Shown: piece by piece, positions 10,057-58,900 of the stretch
Position numbering within the stretch: position 1 is the stretch's first letter
How the letters are laid out: every line of letters begins with the position of its first letter
From: Raillietiella orientalis
Lineage: Eukaryota
Assembly: GCA_036172245.1 (NCBI GenBank)
Contig: JAYWIR010000103.1
Coordinates: 1-64,000, forward strand
Reading direction: 5' to 3'
Length of the DNA: 64,000 bases
Translations under genes and position numbers: made by a program
Notes under the pieces: model-generated
Seen by the model: the letters and a program-made list of their open reading frames with translations, nothing else
The model's database searches: none
Told to the model about the DNA's origin: nothing

Positions 10057-10065
10057 ACTCGGCAG

Positions 10066-13000: not shown

Positions 13001-15694
13001 AGGCGGGCATGCTGATGAGCACCGCCCTGGTGCCTTGCCTCCGCCGAGGATTCTCCGTTCTTAGGGAAAACCGCACCAGAGGATGATCGGACACCGTGGT
13101 CATAATGTCTCGAAAACCCTGGATGCGATTCCCAAGTTCGGTGCTGTGCAGGACGTGATCGATCGGCTTGTGACTTGCAGTTCGCCACACCACTCCGAAC
13201 TCTTCGGATAGCTGCCGTACGCCTTCCTTCCTCTGGCGTCTTGGGAGTGAATGATCTCATCCCATATGTTGAGATCGCCAGCAACAATCACGACGTCCTT
13301 GGAAGCTACGTTTTTACGAAGTGCTGCATGCAGCGCCTCCGCACAACGATGTTTTAGCCTGTACCGCCTATACACGTTCACCAGGATGAGGTGAAGAGTA
13401 GCGGACCAGGCCAGTCGCACGCCGATGATTCGTCCGGGTTGGGGACAGTACACTTCCAGAATAGTGAAGGCCCAGTTGTTCTTGATTATGACCGCCACAA
13501 AATGCGTGTTCCGTTCTCCCTCGCTCACGAACATCTGCCCGTTGAATCGCCGTTTCATTTGCTGAGTATTCTCGAGACCCATCTTGTGGGTCTCCTGCCG
13601 GCACACTATGTCTTTTTGTGCGATAATCCGCACAATCCTATTTCTTTTTTCCTAGTCGACCACACCGTTTACATTCCAGGAGGCGATGTTCAGCCCCCTG
13701 GCGGTCGATAGGGAAGAGGCCATAAAAAGGGAAGTCCTATTTCTTGGCCTTCCTGAGCTTCTTCTGTCTGAGAGAGCGTGCTCTTCCAGACAATGAAGAA
13801 GCAGCGGAATTCCCGCTGCCGGCGTCACTCTCTGTTCTAATGAGGTCGGTTACTTCCGCCTCCTCCGTCGAGTGTTCGGCCCGCGCGATCAATTTTCGAG
13901 ATAGCGCCTCTATATCGACCTTGTCGCAGAAGTTCGCCTCTACGTCGAGAAGCTGTTCCTCTAGCTTCTCGCGCTCGGTGACCTCCCCATCCTGGTTGAC
14001 CTTCTCCTGTGCATTGCAGATCTTCTGCAAGATTTTCACTTGCTGCGGACCGCTCTGCACCTCTAGGACTTCATTAGCCAGTGATGCCAGCACCTCCGTA
14101 CATTGCAGGGCCTCTTGCGACATCGGTGTGGCTTCGTCTATTTCTTCTTCCGCGCTTCTTTGCGCTACCTCCATCTTTTTGCCTTCTTGCTCTTCACCTT
14201 CCAGGATAAGAGGAGCTTCTTGCTCCTTGACGAGCATCCTCCTCTTTTCTTTCTTCCCTACCTGTATGTAGCCGTCTTCCGATACCGGGACGGATTTTTT
14301 CACCTTCTTCGTCCTTCTTGCATTCGGGGCTGTTCCGCCTTCTTGGTGTTTCTCTCTCTCACAAGAGAGAGACCTCGAACCCTTCTGCAGTCTGCAAACT
14401 CCGGACAACTCCATTAGGCATGTCCGTGTTTCTTGCAGAAGGAGCACACCTCAGGCTACGGGCAGTTTCGTACTTGATGTCCTACTTTGCCGCAACGGAA
14501 ACAGCGACACGTTGGGCAAGCGCCTTCCCTGTGGCCGAGCTGCTTTCACCCGGTGCAGAATATCGGTTGTTGCCTGTAACGCACGTTCAGTCCTTGGGAT
14601 TGTTTGTCAAGAACGGCTAATCCAGGGATGACAGCTCCCTCTTTCAACTTCATTTTGGCGATCATGTCGCCAGAAAATATATCTTCAGAGAAGTTCTGGA
14701 ATTCAAGGTCCAGAACTTCCCCATATTGCTCCCAAAAGTTCCACACCGTTAGTTGCGGTGTGAGGATGGAGATGCCGTTCAGAAAGACGGTTGTGTATGG
14801 CATTTCGCCAATACCACAAACCATCTTTCCTTGTATATTGATCCCCTTCTGGATCAATCGCTCTCTATTATTTTCACAGTCTGTGAAGACTGTGAACTTG
14901 TTATTTGCCGGTATGATCGCCTGTATGCGATCAAAATTCATATCCGTTCTATCGAGGGACAGATACACCTCCCTGATATTATTGAATTTGATCAGCCTAG
15001 TCTTGAAATTGATGGGCTTCACATTCGGCACTAATTCCACGATTGGCCGTTCCACCTTTTGGACTTTGCCGCATAGCGGCTTCCCGAAATTTCTTGGTGG
15101 GTGGACACTCGCTTGTCCAGATGCCACCGACGAATAGGACAAGGGCTGCGCCGTCGCAGCCGAACAAGATGGCATCTCGCCCTGCACCGCGTGGCCGCCC
15201 GCGGGTCCTGCCATGGACGCCGCTGCCGCGAGTGCAACCCTCGACGTCGCTACCGTTGCCGCCGCGGGCGGCACCCTCGCCATCGCCGCCGCAGGCGCGT
15301 CCTTCCCCGCCGCGGGCACGATCCTCGGCGCCGCCGCCCCGGGCACGACCTCCGCCGTCGTCGCCGCGGGCACGAGCCTTGGCATCGCCGCCGCCGTCGC
15401 AGCATAGCCCGCCTTTGGCGCGATCCTCGGCATGCCTACCACCGCCTCGCCGTTGCCGCACGTTACCTCCATGGCTTCCATGGGGGACGACGGTGTCTCC
15501 ACTCCTCCTCCAGGTGCCTGCATCCTGGCAGCTGGTCTTGCTGCACGGGACCACTGCAGGTCTTCCGCCACGATCTTCTCGGCGCTTCTTTTGTAGTTTC
15601 GTTTGGAAACTTCCCTTTTCCGGGCACACTCGAGCAGAATTAACTGATTAAGTTGTCGAGCGCACAATACTTTGAGCCGCGATGCAAGTACACC
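10066..15694 (-). mobile_element. LINE family B copy 3, full length (~5.6 kb), degenerate
   Basis: 5' UTR, ORF1 (~15523-13737), ORF2 (~13723-10180) with EN, RT (DMEKAFD, MAYADD), CTACGD..H...C, and family 3' end. Confidence 0.93.
11147..12385 (-). pseudogene. ORF2 reverse transcriptase core of family B copy 3 (open segment of a broken ORF)
   Basis: WRPISILNSDAK, DMEKAFD, GVRQGDSL, YADD, KYLGV. Confidence 0.92.
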
Positions 15695-16306
15695 CTCGGC
15701 AGGAGAGGAGCAATCTCCTCCCTGCCGCTGAGGCTCGACTTCATCGCGTTTTAAGTGTGCTGGGAAATTTGCGCCCCATGCGATTGAAGTGGAAAGCCCG
15801 CAGGGGTCCTTCACGGAAGTCGAGCAGCAAGCAGGCAAGTAGAGAATTCTACCTTGCCCTCGGACGCGATTGGCCTACTGAAGCAGCTGTTCGCAGAGCG
15901 CTTTTGATCGCAGGTGACTTCACCCTGTGCCTGCTTTGAGGTGCGCCGGATACACTGAACGACTGTGTCAACGAGTTGTGCGTAGAAATGCACACGTGCA
16001 ACTATTTGACCGGAGTTATAGCCATGGAACGCGGCATCGATCACGTGTTTATTGACCAGCACGTTTGCTCTTGCGTGGCCAGGCGCGGCAAGGTACTGTT
16101 AGAGGTTTCGGACCATGACCGGATCGTGTTCGAAGTCCATCCGCGCGACATGGGCACCCCGCGTAAGCGTGGCGTCTGCCAGAGGACTGGTTGAAGCTCC
16201 CGGACGCGGCATAACATCTCCGCGCAACATTCGGTTCTTCAGGCTGCGGACGCTTCAGGACTGAGACCGCTTCAAGGGGATCGAGAGGATCGGAGGGGGC
16301 GGCTTG
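15695..16306 (+). mobile_element. Composite LINE remnant: E-like ORF1 piece fused to an endonuclease fragment
   Basis: RQERSNLLP (as at 33275), then LIAGDF..IDHVFID..SDH. Confidence 0.75.
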
Positions 16307-18389
16307 TTATCACCCGGGTGCGCCGGGGCGTTTATTATAAACTATCCGAGAACAGGGTTGTTGTACAAAGAGGAAAACAGGAGACGAAGGGGGTGGGATC
16401 CCCGACACGCAGGTCGGTATGCCGAAAGTCCGGAAGGGTAGGGAAGGGACCACAAATACACTACTATACAATATGAAAGAAAAATATGAAAGGCAGGGGA
16501 CAGGGGTCTTTAATGAGTCCGTTCCTTCCTTTCAAAACTGGCGATGAATGCCAGCGATCTCTCTCCTTACGCCCTTTAACAGATGGGCCCACTCGGCAGC
16601 GAACGACATATTGGTGCAGGCTAATCCGGTGCGCTGAGGAAAAATGGCCGGTTTCTCCAACTCTCGGTGGGCCTTGTCGATGGCGCGGGTGCAACACACC
16701 GTTGAAACGACAGCACCTCAAGACAGGACGCCTGGCGTAAAGAAGCGGCGCATCAAGTCCCTTGCGGTGTCCCCCTGGTGCAGGAGAGCTGAGGCCAGCC
16801 TCCGTTAAAGTCCTAGAAGGGCACAGCAGTTCAGGAGCAGGTGCGGAAGGGTTTCCACTTTCCCGCACCGCTTCCAGTTTGGGGAGACAACTCCCTCGGA
16901 AAAACGGTTCGTCCGCTGGTTGGAGTGAAAATCCCAATGGACCAGCATGATGACGTCCTGCTTCCACCAAAGGGGGAACACAAAATTGTTCTAACAGGAG
17001 TGAGGGACCACAAGTTCTTCGGAGGGCACACTCAAGTGTTCGCTCCACCGAAGGAGTCCCTTCGGGATGTGGCGAGGCGTGGCGGCGTCTGCCACCTCGC
17101 TAGTCCTCCAGCCGCCAATAGTTCGCGTTGTTCCTGCAATGGTGCAGGCGACCCCCCATCTCGCCGGTTCGCGGCTTTCATCTCTTGCCCTGAGGGCTGA
17201 CAGTGCGTCGGCGAGCAGCGTGACGGCCAGGCGGGTCGACTACTCCTGGCTGTTGCACACCTCGTCCACCGTGCAATACGGGGACAGGTGATCGCAACGA
17301 AGTGCCAAAGGAAAACATCCTGGTGCTTTGCCCAGCCATGCAACGGTTCCTGCCTTCAGGCTTGAAAGTTCGTTGGGTGGCCAGAGATCAATTCCTGGGC
17401 TTCCAGGAGCCGGTACAGCGGTTTCAAAGGGCAACCGAAGCTTCTCGTGGCGCGCTCCGTGTGCGGCCCCAGCGACAGAAGCCCATCGCTGCCTGTGCAG
17501 AGCCGCAAAAGCAGGCGAGCGGGATCGCACAACGAAGTGGACCAAAGGTTAAGCACAGGGCAACATCCGGAGCTGCACCTGTAGTTTGATTCTCTCCAGC
17601 GTCAGGATGTCTAATCCAGCATCCCGAAGCGGAGCCGCCAAGTCTTTGAGGCGGATCCTGGATCTCGCAGGACCCCACAGAGCGTTCCTCAACAGGCTGT
17701 GCGCCTGGAGCTTCGCCGAGTTGGGGAGCAAGCAGACAAAAAGTAGGCGGCCCAAGAGGGGGGTAACTAAGTTGTTCCATATCGTAACCTGCTCCGGCAG
17801 GACGAACCTGCCATGGTGAAACGGGCTTAGTGAATTCGAAACCTTCCGAAGGCAGTGCGACCACACTTCCACTGGGCTGATGTTCCCCAGCGGATCGCCC
17901 AGATATTGCATGGATTAAGCGTTCGGAATCCCCAGACGGATCCAGTCGGACTGCTCCTCCCACGCCGCATCAACAGGTACGACCACGCTCTTGCTTAGGT
18001 TAACGCTCATGCCCGCATCCGAAAGAATCAGCTCGAAGAAATCCTCGAGACTGGACGTCGAGGTGGTCATGGGTAAGAAAAGAAGCAGGTCGTCAGCATA
18101 GGCCGCCACGGACGGCATTCCTGTACAAGAGCTTGGCAGGTAGGCCAGCGTCAGATTGTACGCCCTGAGCACCAACTCAAAGAAGATGCTGAAAAGCAAC
18201 TTGGTTAAGCTGTCGCCCTGCTTGATGCCCTGCCGCACCCAAACGCCGTACACGTGGCAGCCGCTAAAAGAGATGCAAATCACCGCGTGGCGCCAGCAAG
18301 CGCGCAAATACGCCACGAGGTGCTCCGCAAGACCGAGGCGTTTCAGAAGCTGCAGCACAAGATCCTGATTTACGCAGTCGAACGCTTTG
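16307..18389 (-). mobile_element. LINE family F copy 1, from RT KAFD to 3' end
   Basis: KAFDCVNQ, GIKQGDSL, AYADD; 3' end aataaaacgccccggcgcacccgggtgataa. Confidence 0.88.
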
Positions 18390-18402
18390 TTCGCTCTAGG
18401 GC

Positions 18403-18409
18403 GGACGTG
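18403..18409 (+). promoter_or_regulatory. DPE-like core promoter element GGACGTG in the family C 5' UTR
   Basis: Recurs at five element 5' ends: 18403, 23979, 39765(-), 48764(-, AGACGTG), 55965(-, GGACGGG); matches the RGWCGTG DPE known from Drosophila LINE promoters. Confidence 0.6.
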
Positions 18410-18485
18410 TTTTCTCGGTGCTCCTCGTGCCAGGAAGTCTCCCCCAGTGCAAACGTCGTGTGGTTCGGAGGTCGATCAGGCAGCG

Positions 18486-20146
18486 ATGCCTGACGCGACC
18501 ACCAGGGATGGCAAGGGGGCAGCGGCAACGCCGGCCCCAGAGGCGATGGAAAGCCAGGGGGCGGCAACAACGTCGCCCCCGGAGGTGATGGAGGTGCAGC
18601 CATCCGCTTCCACAGAATCGGTCCCCGCTGCAGCGCGGGCGTCGAGCGCCATTGTATCCGCGCTATCGCCTGCAGCCGCGGCGGAATTGTCGGCCTATGT
18701 AGAGGAGGGGTACAACCCCTCATTCTTCTACAAGGTAGGCAATTTATATTCTTTAGAGAGCGCGCGCGCCTTCTTGAAGAGCATGCGCGCTCTCGATGTG
18801 AAAGAGGAGGAGCTAAGCGCTATTACCATCCGCAGCGGGGGTCAGTACGTTGAGGTCATCTGCAAACATGCAGAGATGGCACAACGACTGCTTAAAACCC
18901 CCGTTTTGATAGGGACGCGCAGGCTCCTCCCCACTACGGCAGACAACAGCATGGTGGTTCGCCTCTTAGGCGTAACCGCGAGAATGCGCAAAGAACAGGT
19001 TCGCGCCGATTTGGAACAGTTCGGAACGGTCCACGCGCAGGGACAAAAGTGAGTCCTTTCGAGGACTACACGGGGCTGGAACACGGCCTCACTGCTTCGC
19101 GCGTGACCGTTCGGGAGGGATGCACTCTTCCCCACAAACTGGTGGTCGAAGGCGAAACCGTCGACCTCTGGTATGTGGGGAAGCCGAAATACCGTTGCTT
19201 CTGCGATACGTAGGGCCACCTCAGAAAGAGGTGTCCGAATGTGCAGTGCCAACTATGCGGAACCATGGGACACACGAGGGAGGTGTACACAAAAGCAGCA
19301 CTGCGGGTGGTTTCCAAGAGAAACCTTAAAATACGCGCCCGGCTTCTGCAGAGAAGGCTGGCGGCGAAAGCTGCCGCGAAGGCTGTGCCACCCGCGCCCA
19401 AGACCCAGGCCGCACCCGAGATTCCGGATACCAACGCCGAAAAAGTTGGAAGAGCAGGCCAGGAGACTAAGTGGTAAATGGCAACGGCCAGAAAATCAAA
19501 GAAGGAGAGGAGGATGGAAAAGAAAATCGCCTACCAACAGAAGAAGAAAGAGCAGGGTAGCGCGATAATTAAAGAGTGCAGCGTCGTTGTCGAACGCGTT
19601 CTGGATGTTGCCGAACGCTGCCGGAAAGAACTCGCCGCTACCGACGACCTCCCCTCTGTTGACTCTGTCCATTGCAAGGGGAGCGAGCCGGCGGCGGCGT
19701 CCGTCATCGACAACACCATCGATGACGTAGCCTTCGCGCGTGCCGCGGAGGAGCTGGCAGCCTCGTTGCAGCCAGAACCCTCCAAGGCAGGCAGGAAGGC
19801 CGTAAGGCGTCCGGCCTCCTCTCAGGAGTCCCCCACTTCCGACCCCGAGGTTTAAACCGGAAGCGCAGCCTCCATTTCCACGGCACCGCGCAAGAAGGCT
19901 GTACGTAAGTCCACAAAGCCAAGGAAGCTCGTCTCCCCCGTCGAAGGGGAAGAAATGGCTTCCGCAAGCGAGGGTGCCATGAGCGTGGGAAACTCTCGGG
20001 ACCCGTCGCCCGAGAGACTCCCACGCGCGGACACGGAGGGGATCGAGGGGGTGAAGGCCGAACAGGTGCCTCAGGTGCCTGAGAAGGCCGAAACCCCTAT
20101 GAACATCCCGCCCGCATCGCAAGAGGACGGCTCCCCCACACCTTAA
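18486..20146 (+). pseudogene. ORF1 (RRM-like + CCHC zinc knuckles) of family C copy 1, with stops
   Basis: LEQFGTVH, C.FCDT*GHLRKRC, CQLCGTMGH; in-frame stops at ~19050, 19210, 19475, 19853. Confidence 0.85.
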
Positions 20147-20160
20147 TCCTCCCAGCAGTA

Positions 20161-23100
20161 ATGCAGGGAATCTCCTCCCGCCGTCGTCTGCTCATCGCCG
20201 TTTGGAACGTGAACGGCATGACAGACGCCGGCAGGAGACGAGACATTGCCGCCCTTCTGGAATCCTACGACCTTGCGCTGCTGCAGGAGATCCACATGAT
20301 CTCCGCAGAACAAGCGCAAGAGATCGAACGGATCTCCGGAGGGCGGCTGTGGTACAGGTGTGGGAGAACGAAAAGTTGCGCTGTCGCCTACCTGCTTCGT
20401 ACAGCCGTCGAGGCCGCGGCTCGGGGCGTGCGGTTCGACGATCACGGTCGTGTCGGCCAGCTGACTCTCAGATGTTCCGACTCGATTGATCTGATCGTCA
20501 CGAACGTGTACGCACCGAGCGGCAAGGACCTGATGAACAGGAGGGCGAGGAAAGAGTTTTTCCTTGCCCTTCGGCGAGACTGGCTGACCGAAGCAGGCGT
20601 GCGGAATGCCCATCTGGTTGCAGGCGATTTCAACGTTCGCCTGAAACCAGATGGGCAGAATCCCGAGTGTGACCTGGGCAACGAGGTGTGCATGGCGGTG
20701 CACACCTGTAATTTGTTGGTCAGTGCACCGATGATGGAAGACAGCATTGACCACGTGTTTCTTGACGAGCACCTGTGCCCTCGCGTGGGCAGGCGCGGCA
20801 AGTTACCGTGCGAGCTGTCCGACCATCTCCCGCTAGTCCTCGAGATTCAACCGCGCGACAGGGGCCCCCCCTCTTCAGCGTGGCGTCTCCCAGAGGACTG
20901 GCTGAAGCCCTCGGACGCGGCGGAACATCTCCACAGGTTCATGCGGAGCTTCAGGCTGCGGACACTCCAGCATTGAGACCGCTTTTAGCGGTCGGTCCAG
21001 GAGTTTTGCGACCAGTTCCCTCTGCACCGCCTACCTACGGATTTTGGGACCGGGGTCCGTAACGAACGAGCCTACCTCCAGGCCCGTCGTTACGCAAGAA
21101 CCCATGACATCCGCATACTGGCGGAATACAAAGCGGGAGCCGAGAGGCAAGCCTGGCAGTCAGGATCGGCCAGCTTACTTGACGATCAGGACCAGGAGCA
21201 CTAGGCACGTGCTCAAATCCGCGGCCTGCTGCGGAGTTACTACTCCTCCCTGTATGCCAGGGCACCTCCGGAGAAGGACGTTTCACGACTCCTGCTTCCG
21301 GAAGGCGCTCTAGCGATCGGGGAGGAGCAGAGAAAGACCCTGGACGAGCCTTTCACGATGGACGAGATCCTCTCCGCCATCGGAAAGCTCAAGAGGCGAA
21401 AGGCTCCAGGGGAGGACGGCCTGCCCGCGGAGTTTTATCAAACTTTCGCGGCTGAGCTTACCCCTCTGGTACAGCAACTCACCTTGCTAATACGCGAAAC
21501 AGGTGATGTTCCCGCTTCGTTTCGTTAGGCAAAGGTGCGGCCCCTCCCTAAGGTAGGAAATCTGAGGTGCATGAACAACTGGCGTCCCATCACAATAGTG
21601 AATGCGGACGCCAAGTTGCTGGCTAAGGTTTGGGCAGAGCGTCTGAGACGGGTTGCCAACATCTTCATCAGCCCGGAACAGACATATGCTGTTCCCGGGC
21701 GAAGCATGGAGGCGAACCTGTTCCACGCTTCCACCTGGCTAGAGCGCCAGCATGAAAGGAGCTTGGTGCGCAGCTGGAATTCCGGTGCGTACGCCGGCAA
21801 GTGGTTGGATGGTCGGGTGGGGGAGGGAGCCCCTGCGGTCGCAATCAACTGGCGAAAAGCATTCGATTGCGTCGACCAGAATCTCCTTCTGGAGCTTCTG
21901 GAACGCTTGGGCTTCCCGGCATTATTAGTGGCCTATCTGCGCTCTTGCTGGCGCGACGCACTCATCAATGTTACTTTCAGCGGGCAGACCGTGCACGGCG
22001 TGCCGGTGCGGCGTGGGAACCGGCAGGGAGACAGCCTGAGCCCCTTGCTCTTCAGTACCTACTTTGAGTTGATACTGAGAGCGTACAGGGGAACTCTGGC
22101 GCACCTGCCGCACGACTGTGCCGGTACGCCGGCCGTTTCAGCATACGCGGAAGACCTTCTGCTACTGCTCCCTATGTCCACCCCGGCTGCGGCGGTCGAG
22201 TAGTTCTTCGACCTGCTGCATCGGGGAAGCGTACTTACGGTGAAAAGGGCGAAGACGTCCGTGATGCCAGTTGGTGCGTCGTGGGAAGAGCACAAGGACT
22301 GGGTCCGTTTGGGGATCCCCACGGTGAAGCACTTCAAGTACCTTGGTGTGCCGTTGGGGAACTACTCCCCTGCGGAAGCGTGATCCGGTGGCCTTCAAAA
22401 TGTAGAGACGGCGCTCGGCTTGTACCGAGGAGGCAGGTTTTTGCTGCCTGAACGGCCCGCGGTTTGGAACACGTTCGCGGCACCTCTTCTCCCTGCATTT
22501 TGTGTGTTCCCACAGGGAGAGAATTAGAAAGCGGACAAAGGACCTCCTCCGTATCGCCCTTAGGGGCAACAGGAGGGCCCGATTCCGCTTAAAGGACCTG
22601 TGCGCTCCTCTTTGGGACGTTGGTATGGGCCTCCTGACGCTGGAGCGGCTAAAGCTTCAGCTTCAGTTCCGATTGTCGACACTGGTCCCAGAGTTCTGTT
22701 GACGCTGTTGGTCGTCCCTGCACGTCTTCTTCTCCAGCAAGCCACCGGCAAGACGGGATTGAGGTCGTTTCTTGCACTTCGTCGCCGCATCAACCGATGG
22801 GGACTCCAGCTACGGAGGGTGGCTGCGCTGTACCGGAGAAACCCAGGATTCCTCACCTGTCGCCCTTAGGACGGTAGTGCCTGGTTGCAGGATACCGTTC
22901 GAACGTGGAGACAGTTCGGCATGCAACGCTCTTAACAGTAACGAAGGTTCCTCTTTGGGGGTTACAGAAGTTGCACGCTCCGCGAGATCCTTGAGGATCC
23001 AAAGAAGACAGCGTGGGCAGTAAGAAGCCCCGCGTTGCTGCGCTGCCCTCCCTGATACAAGATCTGAACAGCGATGATGCGGCGAAGTGGGAGGTTACAG

Positions 23101-23730
23101 TAACAATCTCCGGAAAGGAGAAGAAGATACCAGAGTGGAAGACGGGCCAGTTAACAGACGCTGAGTCCCCGAGGACGCCTCCCAATGGACTTCTACGCTG
23201 AGGCGCGCAGCTCGACGTTCCCATTGAACGTTTGAAGTGGCCCCAGGTACCAATGAACACCTTTACCCTCCCCTTTAAATGGAATGAGTCGGAATTCCTT
23301 TTGCAGCACTGGTGACTCCCCTGCAACTTCCGCCGTCACCACTGGACCTGGCGAGCGGTGGACCCCAATTGCGTCAGGTGTGGGGAACGGAAGTCCTTCC
23401 CCCACCTGCTAGTAAATTGTGTTGCCCTTTGGCCCCTTTGGTTTCGCTTTGCCGCGGCCATCAGTATCCTCTGCGGCAACCTCAGGGACGCACTGAAAGC
23501 CCTCTTCGTTGCCGACGCCCTTCGGCCAGCTGCCTCGTTAGCAGCTTTGTGCTGCCTACGCGGGATCCTCACCGCTTGGAGTAAATCAACGGGAGGTGAA
23601 AGCGTCCAGGGTGCCATCCAGCAAGCCTACCAGTTCCTGAGGAGAGCGTCGCGATGGCTCCACCTGGATCCAAGCATGCAGCAAGATCTTGTCGGCATCC
23701 TGCAAAGGATGCAACGGCCCCACCAGCTAC
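20161..23730 (+). pseudogene. ORF2 (APE endonuclease-RT-C-terminal Zn motif) of family C copy 1, broken; 3' end approximate
   Basis: WNVNG, LQEIH, NVYAP, GDFN, IDH, SDH; WRPITIVN, KAFD, YAED; CVRCGE..H...C. Confidence 0.9.
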
Positions 23731-23965
23731 AGGGAACCCTTCCCGTACCCTCCCAGTTTTTTCTTTTTCTTTTGTTTTGTTTTTACTTTTTTCTCCTTCC
23801 CCCTGCCGCCGTGGTTGACCGTGCCGGTCTGCGAACCAGTGACCCGGCACGCTCTGTGTTTCTTCGTGCGTGGCTGGAGCAATGGTCCAGCCACCGCACG
23901 TCTTTGCAAATGTTTCTTTTACAATGAACGCCCGGGCGAAATCCGGGTGAAAATCGAACGCCTTG

Positions 23966-25162
23966 CGTGCTCAAGGGTGGACGTGTTTTCTGGGTGCTCT
24001 TCGTGCCAGGAAGTCTGTCTCAGTGCAAGCGTCGTGTGGTTCGGTGGTCGATCAGGCAGCGATGCCTGAAGCGACCACCAGGGATGGCCAGGGGGCAGCG
24101 GAAACAACGCCCCCAGAGGCGATGGAGAGCAAGGGGGCGGCGGCAACGTCGCCCCCAGAGGCGATGGAGGTGGATGCATCCGCCCCCACAGAATCGGTTC
24201 CGGCTGCAGCGGGGGCGTGGAATGCCGTTGTGTCGGCAACATCGCCTGCAGCCGCGGCGGAATTGTCGGCCTATGTAGAGAAGGGGTAAAACCACTCACT
24301 GTTCTCCAAGGTAGGCAACCTTTACTCTTTAGAGAGCGCGCGCGCCTTCTCTAAGGGACTCCGCGCTCTCGATGTGAAAGAGGAGGACCTCAGCGCTATG
24401 AACTTTCGCAGCGGGGAACAGTACTTTGAGGTCATCTGCAAACAAGCAGAGCTGGCATAACGACTGCTTGAATCTCCCGTTGTGATATGGACGCGCCGGC
24501 TTCTCCCTACTACGGCGGACCGTAGAATGGTGGTTTACCTGTTAGGCGGAACCGCGCAAATGCGCAAAGAACAGATTCGCATTGCTCTAGAGCAATTTGC
24601 AACGGTCCACGCGCAGTGGACAAAAGTTAGTCTTTTCGGGGACTACACAGGAATGCAACACGGTTTCACGGCTGCGCGCGTGACCGTTCGGGAAGGCTGC
24701 ACTCTTCACCACAAAATGGTGGTCGAAGGCGAAACCGTCGACCTCTAGTATGTAGAGAAGCCGAAATACTGCGGCTTCTGCAATACGTCGTGCCACCTTG
24801 AAAAGTGGTGTCCCAACGTCCAGTGCCAAGTATGGGGCACATTGGGTCACACGAGGGAGGTGTGCGCAAAAGCAGCAGCGCAGGTTGTTTCCAAGAGAAT
24901 CCTTAAAAAACCAGCCCGGCTTCTGAAGATAAGGCTTGCGGCGAAAGCTGCCGCGAAGGCTGTGTTTTCCGCGCCCAAGACCCAGGGCACACCCGAGACT
25001 CCGGCGACCAGCACCGAAAAAGTTGAAGTAGCCGTCCAGGAGAATGGGTTGCAATTGGCAACAGCAAAAAATTAAAGAAGGTGAGGAGTTCAGAAAAAAA
25101 GCTTGCGAACCGCCAGAAAAAACAGGAGGCAAGCAAGAAGATAGAAGAATGCAGCCTTGTCG
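23966..25162 (+). mobile_element. LINE family C copy 2, 5' UTR + ORF1 N-terminal part, tandem to copy 1
   Basis: Colinear with 18390-19580 (MPEATTRDGQGAAE). Confidence 0.9.
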
Positions 25163-27612
25163 TTCATTAACTGGTTGCGCCGGGACGTTTATTCTTAATA
25201 TTCACTGAGAACTGTGTTTCCAGGCAAGGGGAACCGAAAATGGGGATAAGATTTCCCAAAACGCAGGCCGGGTACACTGAGATTTCGGAACGGAAGAGAG
25301 TGGGACAATAAATAAATAAATTTGGTGGGAGGATGGGGATAGGGGTATACAGTCTAAACGTTCCTATTCTCAGAACCGGCGGTGAATCCCGCCGATCTCC
25401 GTCCTCACTTCTGCTCCAAGGAGTGGCCACCCGGCGGCCATTTGCAGGTTGCCGGCTGCGGTGTCGGAAATCGATGTTGGGACTGCTCGCATCTGCAATA
25501 CGTGGCGGGCCTTTACAATGGCGCGGACGCAGCAGAGGATGGCCACGTCTGCTTCAAGAGAAAGGCGGCCACGCGTGTAGAAGCGGCGCATCCAATCGAG
25601 TGCGGTGTGTCCAAGGTGCAGGAGCGCTGAATACAACCGCCGCCACAGATCCTGGAGGGCACCGCACTCAAACAGCAAATGAGGAAGCGATTCCACCGCT
25701 TTGCATTGGTCACAGTTCGGGGAAGCAACTTATTCGGAAATCAGGTTCGCCCGCTGGTTGCAGTACAGCCCCCAATGCACCAGCATAAAAGCGTCCTATT
25801 TCCACCGAAGGAGGAAGAGAGTCGCGTCCAAACACGCAGAAGGGACCACAAGTTCATCTGTGGGCACCCCGAGGAGCTCACTCCACCGGAGAAGCCCCTT
25901 TGGAAGAATGCGAGGTGTGGCAGAGTCTGCCACTTCGCAAGTCCGCCAGCCGCCCAGCAGTTGGGTTTCGCCTGCGATTTCGCAAGTGATCACCCACCTC
26001 GCCGGCCGGTCACTGTCATCTCGCAACTTGAGTGCACACAGTGCTTCGGCGAGTGGCGAAGTGGCTAGGCGTGTCCACAGGTCCTGGTGCTCCAGCACCT
26101 ACCCCACTGGACAGTATGGGGAAAGTTTCACTCAACGGAGTTCCAAACGAGACACATCCAGTTGCGCTGCCCAGGACGATAAGGCTTCCTGCCTCCAGGC
26201 GTTAAAGTTCGTCGGCCGGCAGGAGATCCACTCATGCTTTCCCAGAAGCGTGGCGAGGCGCTTCAAAGGGAAGCCGAATCCACTGTGGGCGCGCTCCGTT
26301 CGCAGATGCAACGAAACTTCTCCGTCGCCACCCGTGCAGCGCTGCAGCAGCAGCCTCGCTGGAGCACACCAGCGAGTAGTGCAGAACTGCGCAAAAAGTG
26401 CCAGCATGCGGAACTTCACTAGCAGTTTGATCCGCTCCAGCGTCAGGATGCCCAATTCTGCATCCCGCCGAGGAGCCGCCAAGTCCTTCATGAGTATTCT
26501 GGACCTAGCCGGTTTCCACAGGGCGTTCCGAAACAGGCGTTGCACCCGGCGCTTAGCCAAGTAGGGAAGGGGACAAACAAAAAAGGAAGGACGGAGGAGG
26601 GGAACAAAGAAAATGTTCCACACGAAGGCCCGTTCCGACAGGGGAAACCTGCCGCCTTGGAACGGGCTCAGAGCAGTCTCGGCCTTGAGAAGGCAGTTCG
26701 ACCACGCTTCTACTGGACAGAAGGCGCCCAAGGGAACGCCGAGGTTCTTCATGCACCTGCCCTTGGGGACACCTGGCGGATCCAATGGGACTGCCCCTTT
26801 CACGTAGAGCCAACCGGTACAACGGTTGATTTCGTCCTGTTGACGCTCAGGCCCTTTATCCGACGAATGAGCTCGAAGAAGAACCTCGAGTCTGGACGCC
26901 GGGGTGGACATGGACAACAGCAGGAGAAGGTCGTCAGCATAGGCAGCCACCGCTGGTGTTCCCGGGCATGAGCTCAACAGGTTGGCCAGCGTCAGCTTGT
27001 ACGCCCTAAACACCAACTCGAAGAAGATGCTGAAAAGTAGGGGGCTTAAGCTGTCTCCCTGCCTGATACCCCGCCGTATAATAATGCCGTACATGTGGGG
27101 CCCGCTAAAAGAGATACAGCATAACGCGTAGCGCCAGCAGGAGCGCAAGTATGCGATGAGCTGCGTCGGGAGGCTAAGGCGTCCCAGAATCTTCAGAAAG
27201 AGGTCCTGGTTTACGCTGTCGAACGCTTTGCATAGATTGACTGCGACCGCTAAGGCTCCCTGCGTTCCATCGTGCCTTGAACCCCGCCGCTTACCTTTGG
27301 CAGCGGCGATTTTAGCTGCCTGGCACTACTGCGCCACGCGCTGCTGCAAATCGAACCATTTTAAAGGAAAGAAGAGATTCGCGTCCATGGACTGCCCCGG
27401 AACAGCATACGTCTGCTCCGGACTTACCAAGAACTCCGCGATTCTCCCCAGGCGAGCGACCCATAGCTTAGAGCACAACTTGACGTCCCAATTCACCAAG
27501 GTGATCGGACGCCAGTTGCTGAGGTGGCGCAAATCATCGTCTTTCTTCAGGAGCCGCACCTTTGCTGAGCGGAAAGAAGCGGGAAGATCTCCCGTCTCAA
27601 GCATCAGCGATC
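25163..27612 (-). mobile_element. LINE family F copy 2, RT to 3' end
   Basis: WRPITLVN, GIRQGDSLSPLLF, AYADD; 3' end aataaacgtcccggcgcaaccagttaatgaa. Confidence 0.88.
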
Positions 27613-37837: not shown

Positions 37838-37867
37838 AATAAACGCCCCGGCGTGACCGGGTGAGAA
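37838..37867 (+). terminator. 3'-end module: AATAAA poly(A) signal + CCCGG-CGTGA-CCGGG hairpin + short A
   Basis: Same module at 42733-42762, 60738-60767, 23923-23953, 16307-16337(-), 50087-50118(-), 56227-56256(-), 61313-61343(-). Confidence 0.7.
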
Positions 37868-39790
37868 ATCTCCCGGGCTTGATCTGCGGAGATCACGTGG
37901 ATCTCCTGCAGCAGCACCAGGTCGAAGGATGCCAGGGTGGCGGCCACGTCACGCCTCTTGCCGTCGTCGCTTAGCCCGGTCACGTTCCAACAGGCGATCA
38001 GAAGACGACGGCGAGAGGCGATTCCCGGCATTATGGCTGGGAAAGTGGCGTCGCGGCACCTGCCGCGGGGCAGGTGTAGGAAAGGTCCATCGGTACGAGG
38101 ACCATCGGAACGAGGACGGAGGCCTCTTCAGGCGCCTGGGGTACCTGTTCGGCCTCCATCCTCACCATCCCCTCCGTGTCCGAGCGTGGAATTCTCTCGG
38201 GCGACGGGTCCCGGGAGTTTCCCACGCTCATGGCACCCTCGCTACCGGAAGCCATCTCCTCCCCTTCGTCGGGGGAGACGATCTTCCGGGGCATTGTGGA
38301 CTTTCGTCCTGCCTTTTTGCGGGGTGCCGCGGAGATGGATGCTGTGTTTCCGGCCTTCACCTCGGGGTCGGAAGTGGCCTACTCCTGAGGGGAAGCCGGA
38401 CGCCTGACGGCCTTCTTGCCAGCCTTGGGGGCAACCGGCTGCAGCGAGGCAGCCAGCTCCTCCGCGGCGCGCTCGAAGGCGACGTCATCGAGCGTGGGCT
38501 CGATGACGGACGCCGCCGCCTCGCTCCCCTCCTTGTTGACTTTGTCAACGGAGTGTTGATCAGGGGCAGCAGCGAGTTCTTTAGCGCCGCATTCGTCGAT
38601 GGCGGGAATCCGCTCTACAACGACGCAGCAGCTTTTAATTTTTTCGCTGCGCAAAGCGGTTTGGCTCCGTTTCGCCACGTTCTTTCCCTTCTTATGGGAG
38701 TTTTTCTTGGGATCGACCTTCTGCCACCCTGGCTCTTGACCCTCGCCCTCGATCTTTTCGGCGTTTTTCGCCGGGGTCTCGGGGCTGACCTTCGCCTTGG
38801 TGGCGGATGTGATCTTCTTAGCAGCAGCACGAGCTGCCAGCTACTTACTCTTTTTTGCCGCTCGCTTTCTCGCGTTTTTCGCGGACACGACGCGGAAGGT
38901 GTTATGGGGGCACACCAGACGGGTGTGCCCGCTTGTTTGCAATGCTGGCACTGCACGCTCGGACACCTCATTTTAAGGTGACCGAAGCTGCTGCAGCAGC
39001 CGCAAAACTTGGGTTTCCCCACGTACCACACGTCAACGGATTCAACGTTGACGGTGAGTTTGTGGGGAAACTCACATCCCTCGCGAACCGTCACTCGCGC
39101 TGCACCCAAGCCGCCAAGCACCCCGTCGTAATCGACAAAAGGAGTGGGCTTTCCACACAGCGCGTTGACAGTTGCAAATTTTTCTAATTCGTTCCGTGCG
39201 GCCTTCTTCGTCATCCGGAACGTGATACCGGTCAGGTGAATGATCACCGACCGGTCTTCAGTAATGGGGAGAAGCCTCCGGCTGCCCATAATTACGGGGG
39301 TTCGCAGAAGTCTCTGCGCAAGAGTTGCCTCCTTGCAGATAACTTCCACGAATTGACCCCCGCTTCCGACGGACATAGCCAGAAGCTCCTCTTTTTGTAC
39401 ACCGAGAACGCGCATCGCCTGCGGAAAGCCGCGCGCGTTCTCGGGAGAATATAAACCGCCTACCTTATATAGAAGGGGTGAATTATACCCCTCCTCCAGG
39501 TAAGCGCTCATTTCCGCCATAGCCGCTGGCGTAGGTGCCGCAGCCACGGCGTTCCAAGCCCTGGGTAGGGCCGGGGGCGCATCTGTGCTGGCGGGAGCCT
39601 CCACTGATGCGGGAGCTCCCACCTCCATCTGCTCCGGGGGCAATGAGGTCATCGCCCCCGGATCCTCACCGGTGGTGGTATCAGGCATTGCTGCCTAATC
39701 CTCCACCCACACCAAGCACAAGCACCAACGGAAATGAAACTCAGGAGCAACGAAAAGACACGTCCGCTCGACGCTCTGCAATCACGCTGA
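37868..39790 (-). mobile_element. 5' part of a C/D-related LINE (5' UTR, ORF1 39688-38031, start of endonuclease); tentatively family D
   Basis: MPDTTTGEDPG.., CGCCSSFGHLKMRC, CQHCKQAG; TAATG; IACWNVTG..LLQEIH; cut at AREI by E. Confidence 0.88.
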
Positions 39791-39794
39791 CTGG

Positions 39795-47414: not shown

Positions 47415-48774
47415 CCTGCCGAGTTGGCGAAGGGGCGACTGCATGCAGCGTGCTTTTGCTTGCTGCGACGCTGCTTTTACGGCTTTCGTAGCCTCTGAAG
47501 AAAGGCCTACGCTGCAGTGGGGCTGTCCGGAACTCGGAAGGGACAAAGGAACGGGGCTAAAACTCTTCGTACTGTTGCGATCTTTTTGTTTTTCTACCTT
47601 TCCCTTTAGGGTGTTACGGAGATTTCCTGGTTCCTGGCTCGGAGAGTTGCCTGCGAGTTCGGCAGAGAGGAAAGGCACGGCACGCGTCAAACCCTCGCGC
47701 CCCTTTTATTGTCTTCTCCGCCGTGACTTTCCAGTTTAGGGGCGTTGCGGGCGGGGATGCTTTCTTTTCATCCGTGGATCGCTCGTTGTTTTTTCCGAGT
47801 TTTTGCCGACGACTTTTTTTATTTGCCGCTGCGGCTTTTCGTGCAGTGGTCTCTTCAACCCGACGAATTTCCGATGCGGCTCTTTTTCGTGCAAGTACCG
47901 AGCATTTTTTGATTTCGTGCCCGGAATCTTTGCAATAACGGCATCTAGGAGAGGGGCACTCTTTAATTCGGAGCCCATTCTTGCCTCACTGCTTGCACGC
48001 GCGAGTTTGGTCTATAAATCACAGATGAACGACCGTGCCGTTCAACTGCAGCTGCTCAGGCACAACACGCCTGTTCGCGACGGTGATCCGAGCGGAGGCT
48101 TGTCCGATGTGGACAAAGGAGGAATCCTTCAAAGGGTTCGGCGTCCTCTACAGGGCGTGCACTGTGGCGAACTTCGCCAGCACGCTTACAACATCGCGGT
48201 CGGAGATTTCCGGTTCGATGTCGCACAATTGAACGACAAAAGAGTCGTCCATCGCGGTAGGTAGGACTTCCTTGCCATTGATGGTCAACGGCGTACGGAG
48301 AAGGCGCTGCACAAGTGCTGCGTTCTTGCACCGAATCTTCGTATATTCCATCCTGCCAGCAGGCATTATGGCAACGAGTTCCTCCTCGCGAACGCCGATC
48401 CGGACGAGCTCATCATTGAGCTCACGACCGATTCTCCCGTTAAGGGGCCCACTGACCTTATAACGGAGTGCAGGCATGTATCCTGATGACACATATGCCT
48501 GGAACTCCGCATCGCAGGGTCCTGGTCCTTGGGAGGTAACGGCGGCGTAACTCCTCACCGGGGGCGAGGAAACCATTACGGAGGATGCGGCCACTTCAAG
48601 TGCAGCTCAAGTGCATCCAGTGGCTTGCTCCTCCACACTATCCTGTGTACTGGCCATGTTGCACTATGCTACTTGGCAGATTGCACAGGAACACACAAGT
48701 GCGAGCGAAAACCCAGGCACAAAGTTGCCGGATCGTTGGCGCGGATAGACGCGGAAACACGTCTGCACTGTACG
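47415..48774 (-). mobile_element. LINE family E copy 3, 5' UTR + ORF1 N-terminal half
   Basis: ORF1-like VQRLLRTPL..LAKFATVHAL; ends in tcgccaactcggcagg, which overlaps the start of the E 3' half at 33275 (actcggcaag). Confidence 0.82.
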
Positions 48775-50086
48775 AGCGCAAGAGATCGAACGGATCTCCG
48801 GAGGGCGGCTTTGGTACAGGCGTGGGAGACCGAAAAGTTGCGGTGTCGCCTACCTGCTTCGGCCAGCCGTCGACGCCGCGGCTCCGGGCGTGTGGTTCGA
48901 CTATCACGGTCGTGTCGGCCAGCTGACTCTCAGGTGGTCCGACTCGATCGATCCGATCGTCACGAACGTGTACGCACCGAGCGGCAAGGACCTGATGAAC
49001 AGGACGGCGAGGAAAAAGGTTTTTTCCTTTCCCTCCGGCGATACTGGCTGACCGAACCAGGCGTGCGGAATGCGCATCTGGTTGCAAGCGATTTCAACGT
49101 TCGCCTGAAACCAGATGGGCAGAATCTTGAGCGTGACCTGGTCAACGAGGTGTGCATGGCGGTGCACACCTGTAATTTGTTGTTCAGTGCACCGGGGATG
49201 GAAGACAGCATTGACCACGTGTTTCCTGACGAGCACCTGTGCCCTCGCGTGGGCAGGCGCGGCAAGTTACCGTGCGAGCTGTCCGACCATCGCCCGCTAG
49301 TCCTCGAGATTCATCCGCGCGACAAGGGCCCCCTCTCGTCAGCGTGGCGTCTCCCAGGGGACTGCTTGAAGCTCCCGGACGCGGCGGAACATCTCCGTAC
49401 GATCATATGGAGCTTCACGCTGCAGACACTCCAGGATTGGGACCTCTTCAAGCGGTCGGTACAAGAGTTCTGCGACCAGATCCCTCTGCACCGCCTACCT
49501 ACGGGTTTCGGGACCGGGGTCCATAACGAACGAGCCTACCTTGAGGCCCGTCGTTACGCCAGGACCTCCGACATCCGCAGGCTGGCGGAATACAAAGCGG
49601 GAGCCGAGAAGCAAGCCTGGCAGTCCGGATCGGACAGCTTGCTGGACGATCAGGGCAAGGAGCACTCGGTACCCGCCCAAATCCGCGGCCTGCTGCGGAG
49701 TTACTACTCCTCCCTGTATGCCGGGGCACCTCCGGAGAGGAACGTCTCAGGACTCCTGCTTCCGGAAGGCGCTCCAGCGATCGGGGAGGAGGAGAGAAAG
49801 ACCCTCGACGAGCCTTTGACGATGAACGAGATCCTCTCGGCCATCGGAAAGCTCAAGAAGCGCAAGGCTCCAGGGGAGGACGGCCTGCCCGCGGAGTTTT
49901 ACCAAACTTTCGCGGCTGAGCTTACCCCCCTGGTACAGCAACTCACCTTGCTGATACGCGAAACAGGTGACGTTCCCGCCTCGTTTCCTTCGGCAAAGGT
50001 GCGACTCCTCCCTCAGGGAGGAGACCTGAGGAGCATGAACAACTGGCGTCCCATCACAATAGTGAATGCGGACTCCAAGTTGCTAG
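48775..50086 (+). mobile_element. LINE family C copy 4 fragment (from EN AQEI to RT NADSKLL)
   Basis: Colinear with 20313-21622; both ends coincide with insertion sites of other families. Confidence 0.9.
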
Positions 50087-55100: not shown

Positions 55101-55971
55101 TTTTGCGGGCACACTGGAAGAGTGTGCTTGGGTTGCTTGCATTGCTTGCACTGCAAGTGAGGGCACCTTTTTTTCAGGGGACCTGAAGTGCTGCAATGCC
55201 CGCAGAAATATGGCTTACCGACATACCAGATGTCAACGGGTTCGCCGTTGACCTCCAGCTTGTTAGGTAGGGAGCAACCCTCGCGGACCGTGATTCGCGC
55301 AGAAGCCATACCGCAAGTCAGGAGATCGTACTCCCAAAACGGAGTCGGCCTTTTCCACAACGCGTGGACAGTTCCAAATTTAACTAGTTCATTTCGGACA
55401 GCCTCTTCGGCCATCCGGAATGTGATTCCGAGGAGGTGGATCACGATAGATCTATCCTCCGTGATGGGGAGGAGCCGGCGATTCCCTAAAGGAACAGGTG
55501 TACGGAGCAGACTCTGGGCAAGACTTTCTTCTTAGCAAATCACCTCAACGTACTGTCCACCACTCCCGATGGTCATCGCCAAGAGCTCCTCCTGTGGTAC
55601 TTTGAGGGAGTGCATCGCTTTCGAGAAAGCGCGTGCACTCTCGAAGGAGTAAAGGTTGCCTACCTTGTAGAGTAGAGGGGGATTGTACCCCTCCTATAGG
55701 TAGGCTTTTAACTCAGCCGCAGCCGCTTGCGTTGGCGCCGCAGCCACGGAACTCCAGCTTCTCCCTAGCGAGCGAGTCGCTTCTGTGGGGGCGGTTGCCT
55801 CCACATCCATTGATTCAGTAGGCAACATAGACGTCGCCCCCTTCTTAACATTCGTGGTGGTCCCAGGCATTGCTGCCTAGCCACCACCGAATCCACTGGC
55901 ACACCAAGAAAAAAAAGAAAAACAATAAAACCACAAACGCTCAAGAGCGAAACAAAAACCCGTCCGCTCTC
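52181..55971 (-). mobile_element. LINE family G (C-related): 5' UTR, ORF1 (55870-54242), ORF2 to just past YADD
   Basis: CGHCSTSG..C, CKQCKQPKHTLPVC; TAATG; GDFN, IDH, SDH; HKAFDCVD. Confidence 0.88.
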
Positions 55972-58900
55972 GCTCGAGGACTGGGACGATCTGAAAAGAT
56001 CGGTCCGCGAGTTCTGCTGCCGGTTTCCCTTGCACCACCTTCCGCGCGGCTCCGGAGAGGGCGTAGCCAACAGCAGAGATTTTCTGCAGGCCCGCTCCTT
56101 TTCCAAGCGCGCGGACGTTGGTTGATTATCCGAGTACAAGGCCAAGGCCAAGCGCCAGGTCTGGCAGTCAGGGGCGACAGTTCTGCTCGACGACCAGCAC
56201 CGGGAATGCTCGGCTCCAGCCGACGTTTTCCACCCGGATATTCCGGGGCATTTATTATTCTAATTTTTTACAAAAATTAGATAATAAAGTCTTAAAAAAG
56301 ATGTTTTTTGTGGGAAAACACTGGGTTCTCCTACCTTGCTCGACGTGTCGGTTGCCGGTGCATAGACCGGTTAGGTCCATTACCGAGGCGCATGGGAAGA
56401 AAAAACTAGAACAAAAACAAACAAAAAGAAAGATAACGGGGAGGGAAACAGTTATATGGGGAGAGGGGAGGGGCAGGGAAGGGATCACTGGGCGCCTGGG
56501 TCGGTCCTCCGCATCCTGTTGAAAAAGCAGTCAAGTTCGGTTTTTATTGTGGAAGGTAGACGCCACCTTGTCGCCGTCTCTAAAGAGATCGTGGTCCAGT
56601 GGATGGCGTCCCTGCATCTTGAGCCTCTTCTTCTGGCGTGCCACCTTTGCACAATGCCCCGCACGCAGCAGAGGACTGCTAGAGACGCAGCGGGGCGCAG
56701 GCCGTCACGCAGAAAGAGGCGACGGTAAATTTTCTTAGGGTCGCCTACTGGAAGATGGAGGATTGGGGCGATTCGACTCCAGAGTCCATCCAGGGCGACA
56801 CACTCGAGGGTGAGATGCGGGAAGGTTTCTCTTTCTCCGCACTCGACACAGCGGGCATCCACATTCCCCAGTGTCCAGTGAGACAGGCGTGCTCTGCTTA
56901 ACAGTCCCCAGTGCAGAAATAGCAATGCCGTCTCCTGCCACTTCAACCGAAGTGTGCCGCAATCCCAACACGCTGGGGGCCACTTCACCTCCTCCGGAGG
57001 TATTGCGAGCAGCTCTCCCCAGCGCGCAAGTCCGTGAGGCGGAACGCTCGGGGTGGCAGCGTACGTGAGCTCCCGAGTCGTCCACGCCTTTAAAGGTTCT
57101 TTCCTGCCTCGGATGAGGCAGAACACTTCCCACGATGCCCGCTCGTTGCTGCTCCTAGTGTTTTTTAGGGAGGACAGAACGGGGGCAAGGGGACTGAAAG
57201 AAGCCCACAGAAACTTCCGGGGCGTGTTGATAATCTCCTGCAGCGGCTGTCGAGCGTACGGTCCTCGTCGTAGGCAGTTGTATTCCGCCTCGCTCGTGCT
57301 GTTGATCTTAGCCCACGCGAAAGCTGACTCCTGAAGCCAGGCAGTACAGTTCGCGGGGAGGCAGGAGATCCAGGTATTCTCCCTCATCAGGGCGACCATC
57401 TGGCGCAAATCAGGGCCACAGTTGGAGAGGCTGCGCTGGTAGGCCACGAGGATCGAGGACAATCCTTCGAAGCCGGTCGCTCTTCTGGCGAGGAGCCGTG
57501 CCGCATCGCGCCATGGCGTCATCCATAAGCTAGCCGCAAGAACTAACTTTCGAATTGTTGTTTGAAGTTGGATGCGCTCTAACGTAAGGAGGCCCAAGCC
57601 ACCATCCCTGCGTGGAGCGCAAAAGTCTTTCAATAGGACTCGCGACCTCGCTGTGCCCCAAAGGGCAGTCCTTAAGAGGGCTTTGGTCCGTTTCTGTATG
57701 ATGGGAGTGGCGGGGCAAACAAAAAGTAAGGGGCGAAGGAGGACGGCCGCGAACACGTTTCACACAGCGGCCCGCTCCTCCAAGTAAAACTTGCCGTTTC
57801 GGAACGGGCCGATCGCCAACTCCACCTTTTGGAGACGGTCGGACAAGACTTCTGCAACGCAAAAGTCCCCCAACGGAACGCCAAGGTCCAGCCGACGTGC
57901 GACGGATAGTCAGGCGCAATCACTCTTCTCTGTATGCAGAGGCACCGACGGAGCGCTGCCTCTCCCGGCTGCTTCTGCCGATTGATGCACCTGTTGTAGA
58001 CGACAAGGAACGCGGGCGTCTTGATGAGCCCTTCACAGCAGAGGAAATTTCCTCGGCCATCTCGGGGCTCAAGAGACGAAAACCGCCAGGCGAAGATGAG
58101 CTCCCCGCGGAATTCTTTCAGTGTTTTGCGGCGGACCTCATCCCCCTGGTGCTCCAACTCTCGTCGCTGATGCTAGACTCGGGCGATGTCCCCGCCTCGT
58201 TTCGCTCAGCGAAGGTGCGTCTACTGCCGAAAGGCGGAGATTTGCGCCAACTGAACAACTGGCGTCCAATCATATTAGTGAATTCGGACGTCAAGTTGTT
58301 CTCGAAACTTTCGGTGGCGCGAATGGGTAGGATCGCAGAATCCTTGGTAAGTCCGGAGCAGACGAAAGCTGTTCCAAGGCGGTCCTTGGACGCGAATCTC
58401 TTGTTCATCCGCACATAGCTGCAATTGCAGCATCGTGTGGCGGTGGATCGTCGTGCGGAAGCAACGCCTTCGATCTCTCACCGAGGGAGGCGCGGGACGC
58501 AAAGGGAGACATTGGAAGCTTTGGCGGTTGCAGTCGATTTGCACAAAGCTTTCGATTGCATGAAGCAAACGCTTCTTCTTGAGCTTATGGAACGTCTGGG
58601 TCTTCCGGCATCCCTGTCGGCCTACTTGCGCTCCTGCTGGCGCCACGCGAATACATCCATTGTTATCAGTGGCTGTCGCGTGTATGGCGTGCCGGTACGA
58701 CGAGGAATTAGGCAGGGTGATAGCTTAAGCCCGCTGCTCTTCAGCATCTATTTTGAATTGGTGCTGGAGGCTTACAGGCTGACGCTAGCCAACCTGCCGA
58801 GCTCCTGTCCAGGTACGCCGGCCGTGGCAGCCTATGCCGACGACCTGCTTCTCCTGTTGCCCATGTCCACCCCGGCGACATCGCTTGAAGACTTCTTTGA

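Follow-up and report, generated by a model that had tools for sequence, protein, structure and literature searches.

Long interspersed nuclear elements (LINEs) are thought to hold their whole promoter internally, with full-length copies expressible wherever they have inserted. A junction at positions 18374-18409 of a 64,000-nucleotide (nt) stretch of Raillietiella orientalis DNA (GenBank assembly GCA_036172245.1, contig JAYWIR010000103.1, positions 1 to 64,000 of the forward strand; hereafter the window) raises the question of whether a core promoter may also be divided between an element and the DNA into which it inserts. These positions are the 5′ junction of c1, a copy of a LINE family designated A, which lies antisense in the codons for motif A (KAFDC) of the reverse transcriptase (RT) in an older sibling, its host LINE. 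We put at about one half the probability that a TATA-less core promoter made of an Initiator (Inr) together with a downstream promoter element (DPE) spans such insertion junctions: the 5′ untranslated region (UTR) of the element would contribute the DPE (RGACGTG), and target-derived DNA would contribute the Inr, with its A exactly 27 nt upstream. The evidence comes from c1 and from three further family-A junctions in the window; all coordinates are collected in Table 1.

A conserved 5′ UTR block and Inr-like hexamers at a fixed offset

Five family-A 5′ ends carry the block RGACG(T/G)G (18403+, 23979+, 39765−, 48764− and 55965−; copies other than c1 are named here by these positions). Among the 62 matches in the window to a 12-mer centred on RGACGTG, these five were the only ones with at most one mismatch, and in an alignment of the five 5′ regions the block was the sole conserved stretch upstream of the start codon, in copies whose proteins from open reading frame 1 (ORF1) are only 31-63% identical to that of the reference copy c1. 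With GGACGT in three copies, AGACGT in one and GGACGG in one, all five fit the DPE consensus RGWYV(T), which is placed at +28 from A+1 with strict Inr-DPE spacing (PMC5580651).

A sequence-only reading of this DNA had reported that, in four cases, the purine of an Inr-like hexamer lies 27 nt upstream of the motif. Its coordinates and motifs at the four junctions proved exact, and the R of the motif stands at +28 in 4/4 independent junctions. Scored against the Inr consensus (PMC1636488), written as TCAKTY, the hexamers at offset 27 matched at 5/6 positions in three copies (GCAGTC, CCAGTC and TCAGAT) and at 4/6 in the fourth (CCGTTC); +1 is A in three copies and G in one, and there is no perfect match to this consensus, which is of the Drosophila type and may not be that of the host organism.

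Spacing statistics had been proposed in the same reading as a check, and we scored every hexamer 8-69 nt upstream of the motif (62 offsets) against TCAKTY. No offset other than 27 had more than one copy at ≥5/6, making 27 unique over the four independent junctions in the window. This offset was fixed beforehand, because the known rule sets the DPE at +28 from A+1 with zero tolerance. On the antisense strand of family-A ORF2, background matches to TCAKTY amount to 1.1% at ≥5/6 and 8.1% at ≥4/6. The probability that at least 3/4 junctions reach ≥5/6 is then 5.5e-6, or ~3e-4 when corrected for 62 offsets, and the joint probability of the observed scores (3/4 at ≥5/6, 4/4 at ≥4/6) is 4e-7, or 2.5e-5 when multiplied by 62, all of these figures assuming that the four junctions are independent.

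Target origin of the hexamers

In BLAST comparisons against the window, homology to uninterrupted host sequence ended 13-15 nt before the motif at 18403, having passed through GCAGTC at 18374 and continued to 18388-18390, and 6-8 nt before the motif at 55965. The BLAST boundary at 48764 also fell 6-8 nt before the motif, and alignment places it at 10 nt. At 39765, BLAST homology to the host stopped 33 nt before the motif; in a multiple alignment, the 16 nt that follow this break align to host LEDWD codons in antisense, shifted by an 11-nt gap. A sliding 16-mer test found the best match at the same offset in 6/7 host stretches, reaching 13/16 in one of them, a score that random 16-mers attained in 65/5000 trials. 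From the alignment and this test together we conclude that all four hexamers are target-derived, and at all four junctions they are collinear with uninterrupted host copies. The sequence-only reading had placed the Inr bases outside the element in three copies and left the one at 39792 ambiguous; host homology bears out the three, and 39792 can now be added to them. We also considered CCAGTC at 39792 as an internal Inr of the element, the other copies being 5′-truncated, and rejected this on the same alignment and 16-mer test, which show host sequence.

The portion of the 27 nt contributed by the target and the portion contributed by the leader of the element itself vary in opposite directions, with 14+13 at 18403, 10+17 at 39765, 21+6 at 55965 and 17+10 at 48764, and their sum is always 27. 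Copies c39765 and c55965, the two insertions at the LEDWD site, differ by no more than 1 nt in host position, and their hosts are 76% alike; each arrives at this spacing through a hexamer of its own and a leader whose length makes up the difference.

The host copy at 39792-39805 (−) lacks 11 nt exactly at the c39765 junction relative to six other host stretches. Two origins can be envisaged for this gap, at 39799: a junction variant that has been propagated, or simply a deletion in the host.

Duplicated target and tandem copies at the KAFDC site

Copy c1 is 5.6 kb long, full length but degraded, with many frame breaks; its RT region scores 66% over 394 amino acids against the family-A RT query (A_RT), and Pfam finds an Exo_endo_phos domain. 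It is flanked by a target-site duplication (TSD) of 12-14 nt, the left and right flanks matching at 12/14 positions, with edges that are ambiguous by 1-2 nt because of a run of A. The duplication begins at most 2 nt from the predicted +1, and its length fits the 14-21 nt of target sequence that the earlier reading had expected at the 5′ end of the transcript.

The older copy c23979 stands in tandem directly behind c1, and the simplest reading of the sequence is that this one site was hit twice. Its hexamer at offset 27 is AAAATC, 3/6 against TCAKTY, in agreement with the earlier statement that the tandem copy has lost its Inr; c23979 would lack one because c1 hit the same site and so separated it from the host Inr. 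A second KAFDC breakpoint was considered at 52174 and rejected, as homology there runs ~10 nt beyond the site.

Site specificity and orientation

Family-A insertion is recurrent at four sites, KAFDC, EIER, LEDWD and ADAKLL, with two insertions each at KAFDC and LEDWD. The EIER site, in the APE domain, has three 3′ junctions and one 5′ junction. The three copies that end there belong to a subfamily, A2, and end at one EIER nucleotide in diverged hosts; the 33919 and 57876 copies, which are two of them, have 3′ UTRs that look ~95% alike by eye and flanks that are ~70% alike. Since the 5′ junction of c48764 lies 12 nt past the A2 3′ junction point, the 5′ and 3′ junctions of different EIER inserts, taken in combination, imply a 12-nt TSD, ATCTCTTGCGCT. 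At ADAKLL, in the RT, there are two 3′ junctions, and a 942-nt inverted repeat (91%; 42583-43524 and 49325-50266) spans the family-A 3′ end and the host at this site; because the repeat covers both insert and host, the ADAKLL pair may represent one event, an inverted duplication.

By our own count, 13/15 insertion events are antisense to the host coding strand (P=0.004), the two sense insertions being those at 2029 and 61317. Both the specificity and the antisense bias had been anticipated in the sequence-only reading, as products of selection for promoter completion. The two patterns are present; the selective cause is weakened by the behaviour of A2, described below.

The same specificity lends itself to an explanation that we consider improbable, in which the CRKTC hexamer is a recognition or nick motif of the endonuclease, RGACGTG is an unrelated 5′ UTR element (an ACGT-core factor site, or a signal for RNA/cDNA 5′ joining) and the fit to a fly promoter is coincidental. 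In each of the target sites GCAGTCGAAC, CCGTTCGATC and CCAGTCCTCGAG, a TCGA lies no more than a few nt from CRKTC; the TSD has its left edge 0-2 nt (KAFDC) or 5 nt (EIER) past the hexamer purine, and the site specificity itself is well supported. However, a nick motif gives no account of why target distance and leader compensate to exactly 27 at four junctions. At 55965, moreover, offset 27 is occupied by TCAGAT and the shared CCAGTC stands at offset 17, and the distance from nick to hexamer varies.

Proposed mechanism and its standing

Returning to a promoter that spans the junction, we infer from the sequence a start of transcription, the usage of Inr and DPE factors, leader-guided joining and a selective link to specificity. 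Transcription would start at 18376 in c1, the corresponding positions for the other copies being 39792, 55992 and 48791, and the RNA would begin with 10-21 nt of target-identical leader, which, because the elements return to the same sites, would equal or overlap the TSD. The leader would probably anneal to the target and prime second-strand synthesis, giving a seamless 5′ junction, as proposed for R2. If the RNA does start at +1, a target-supplied Inr and a target-like leader carried by the element may be two descriptions of one cycle, and the term "split" promoter may be partly semantic.

A divided core promoter, if real, would tie expression to the insertion site, would explain simply why selection favours a given target and orientation, and would link initiation to 5′ joining through the target-identical leader. 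Separately, antisense homing of LINE subfamilies to the conserved coding motifs of siblings would be an unusual "safe haven" strategy that would build nests of this kind. The prediction is sharp: it names four start positions and implies that a spacing change of 1-2 nt would matter. We hold the fullest version of the model to be doubtful: related LINE subfamilies would target one another's ORF2 in antisense, at conserved codons (RT motif A, APE domain and linker), and survive only where the antisense codons place an Inr exactly 27 nt upstream of their own DPE, so that the core promoter would be rebuilt at each insertion, the leader would serve as 5′-joining homology, and promoter completion would fix both site and orientation.

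Several observations weigh against a junction-spanning promoter. The sample is four independent junctions from one window, and one of the hexamers, CCGTTC at 48791, has G at +1. CRKTC, with TCGA close by, is common to the three target sites, and the hexamer could thus belong to a target-recognition motif. The window contains 31 instances of the bare 7-mer RGWCGTG, about as many as chance would give; what marks out RGACGTG is not rarity but a constant position in the 5′ UTRs. Every copy seen is degraded, and therefore none need be active. Subfamily A2 has used EIER at least three times in antisense, yet its 5′ end is without the RGACGTG block, and promoter completion therefore cannot be the sole reason for specificity. 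Finally, the DPE is common in Drosophila and apparently rare in humans (PMC5580651).

It is also conceivable, though improbable, that transcription starts elsewhere, at the first bases of the element, from a host antisense promoter upstream or by read-through from a neighbour as in HeT-A, with RGACGTG an ordinary regulatory site or inert. In favour of such a start are the elements' own 5′ ends, which lie 6-17 nt from the motif and differ between subfamilies, and the 3′ end of c1, which abuts c23979 in the tandem pair. It gives no reason, on the other hand, for Inr-like hexamers piling up only at offset 27, and Rfam, which may miss divergent ribozymes, found no ribozyme of the HDV-like (hepatitis delta virus-like) kind that would process a read-through transcript (0 matches at gathering score in the window, nothing relevant at E≤5 in 18300-18700). 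Least credible is chance, with copies 5′-truncated by a few variable bases and hexamers at offset 27 by accident: 4/6 matches are common (8%), one of the four hexamers reaches only 4/6 and is without A+1, and the pattern was spotted post hoc in a small sample, but 3/4 junctions at ≥5/6 at a single offset predicted beforehand (P ~5e-6, ~3e-4 after the 62-offset correction) make this very hard to sustain.

Composition of the window and other features

The ORF listing, Pfam and tblastn show the window to be a nest almost wholly of non-long terminal repeat retrotransposons (LINEs) of two families, A and B. In family A, ORF1 starts with MP(D/E/G)xTT, and Pfam assigns APE (Exo_endo_phos) and RT (RVT_1) domains to ORF2; both activities are thus represented in ORF2, as for an L1/Tx1-like LINE. 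Family-B ORF1 carries several zinc knuckles. The closest database proteins to the ORF2 pieces are L1-type ORF2s with zf-RVT, at ~30% identity, and Atlas matches were to generic RVT_1 clusters only. For family-A ORF1, no relative was found at E≤0.001 among 5620 candidates, and exact-pattern scans of metagenome contigs for further copies, using the start-codon context and the 3′ stem-loop, returned 0 loci. The elements class as L1/Tx1-like LINEs and, by their recurrent insertion sites, as site-specific ones. The idea of a ZeppL-type algal centromere cluster was dropped, the available part of PMC8226300 being silent on target sites.

A poly(A) or simple-repeat 3′ tail, expected of L1/Tx1-like LINEs, is absent from the family-A 3′ ends. 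By reading, 10/11 of them share the order (A/T)AA(A/T)(C/G), G/C-rich stem-loop, GTG nnAA, with no poly(A) run; in the eleventh (25165−) this pattern is degraded. The pattern persists across diverged subfamilies and may be a recognition signal for the RT. A scan with a loose version of it returned 9 true 3′ ends together with unrelated matches, and 2029+, 2704− and 25165− (the degraded motif) were not among them.

In the 5′ regions, the start-codon context GGCAGCRATGCCTG is common to 4/5 block-bearing copies, and in four copies a conserved hairpin of 6-7 bp (CAGGCA GCRA UGCCUG) has the ORF1 start codon in its 3′ arm. When the five putative leaders were folded, z-scores were weak (-0.4 to -1.8) and no long-range fold was common to them. 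In the predicted fold of the two A1 copies, target-derived leader UCGAAC pairs with GUUCGG ~85 nt downstream.

The ORF1 of copy c48764 (47911-48654 (−)) is only 31% identical to other family-A ORF1s; the sequence at 42763-44888 (−), beyond an inserted family-B fragment, has 90% DNA identity to c1, and the 5′ part may have been replaced by modular exchange, to judge from these identities. Three family-B copies (10055-10064, 15691-15700 and 33281-33290; all −) begin, by reading, at one common nucleotide (YTGCCGAG), and family B may therefore have a defined start. No RGACGTG block is present at these three family-B 5′ ends, in line with the earlier remark that family B shows no such DPE. At two A2 loci, the same 16-28 nt of the A2 5′ terminus stand head to head against a family-B 5′ end, and the third A2 5′ end lies antisense within a family-B RT fragment.

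Table 1. Positions in the window of the junctions, copies and sequence features discussed
Feature	Position	Strand	Details
Host LINE, RT motif A to 3′ end, interrupted at KAFDC	16306..18389	−	tblastn A_RT 182-401, A_Cterm 1-550
Inr-like hexamer GCAGTC, predicted A+1 = 18376	18374..18379	+	target-derived; antisense of host Asp-Cys codons in KAFDC
Target-derived leader = left TSD copy	18376..18389	+	AGTCGAACGCTTTG
Family-A LINE copy c1	18390..23953	+	5′ UTR, ORF1 (ATG 18486), APE-RT ORF2, 3′ stem-loop
GGACGTG, DPE consensus match at +28 to +33	18403..18409	+	only conserved 5′ UTR block
Right TSD copy	23952-23965	+	AATCGAACGCCTTG; directly before older copy c23979
Older tandem copy c23979, same KAFDC site	23954..25164	+	motif 23979-23985
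c39765 junction	39759..39794	−	host-derived CCAGTC (A at 39792), own leader 17 nt, GGACGTG 39765-39759
c48764 junction, EIER site of APE domain	48758..48793	−	host CCGTTC (G at 48791), own leader 10 nt, AGACGTG from 48764
c55965 junction, LEDWD site of another host copy	55959..55994	−	host TCAGAT (A at 55992), own leader 6 nt, GGACGGG from 55965
Subfamily A2 3′ junctions at EIER	37864..37880 (+), near 60763-60780 (+), 2690-2704 (−)		host resumes with ATCTCTTGCGCT or a close variant
Subfamily A2 5′ ends	33272-33299 (+), 7258-7285 (−), 15691-15718 (+)		without RGACGTG block
Family-A 3′ ends	23920-23953 (+), 37840-37866 (+), 60740-60766 (+), 42735-42762 (+), 50085-50116 (−), 16306-16335 (−), others		
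Start-codon hairpin	18477-18492 (+), 24053-24068 (+), 39682-39697 (−), 55864-55879 (−)		
UCGAAC/GUUCGG pairing (predicted)	18378-18385 with 18461-18469 (+); same in 23954-24045		z-scores -1.4, -1.7 only; not in other subfamilies

Comparison with known systems

The separate parts are known, namely LINE promoters of Inr and DPE, site-specific LINEs and target-derived leaders; to our knowledge, their combination, a core promoter of which element and target each hold a part, in LINEs whose homing is antisense to conserved sibling codons, is not known elsewhere. Among Drosophila LINEs, jockey, Doc, I, F and G have internal Inr+DPE promoters. The proposed arrangement resembles theirs in having RGWYV(T), here extended to RGACGTG, at +28 from the Inr purine, in being TATA-less and in lying at the extreme 5′ end. 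There, however, the Inr is element sequence and the flanks are unrelated, whereas here it is collinear with the target, and the present elements are L1/Tx1-like rather than of the jockey or I clade.

Sequence-specific LINEs include Tx1L in Tx1D, Keno, Kibi and R1, and papers have been published on Utopia and R1Bm. Like members of the L1/Tx1 group and other target-specific LINEs, the family-A elements are of the APE type, use one nucleotide position in a multicopy target and make short TSDs; unlike those, their targets are conserved ORF2 codons of sibling LINEs, nearly always in antisense. A single limited literature search, a thin basis for calling the phenomenon unpublished, found no LINE-in-LINE antisense homing.

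Outside animals, a downstream CGTG element is functional in L1Tc of Trypanosoma cruzi, is conserved in other trypanosomatid elements and is reported also for insect LINEs, with which it has been aligned (PMC4748587). The internal Pr77 promoter of L1Tc/ingi is likewise short, with a downstream CGTG core ~25-28 nt from the start (PMC4748587); it is entirely internal to the element and has a second role as an HDV-like ribozyme (PMC3383444), whereas Rfam detected no ribozyme here.

The R2 elements are also site-specific LINEs, whose RNAs keep as much as 36 nt of the 28S sequence that lies upstream and whose 5′ junctions are uniform, with small junction deletions that are propagated (PMC3774820). 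The target sequence that the R2 template RNA carries at its 5′ end is proposed to pair with the target (PMC3774820), as would be the case here, and the propagated deletions are comparable to the 11-nt gap at 39799. In R2, though, the leader derives from co-transcription with the rRNA followed by ribozyme cleavage, in sense orientation; the family-A leader would derive from initiation at a target-borne Inr, in antisense. A promoter activity supplied by DNA outside the copy is also found in HeT-A, which promotes in tandem (PMC1636488); there the whole promoter resides in the 3′ end of the upstream element, while in the family-A elements target and element would each contribute part of a single core promoter.

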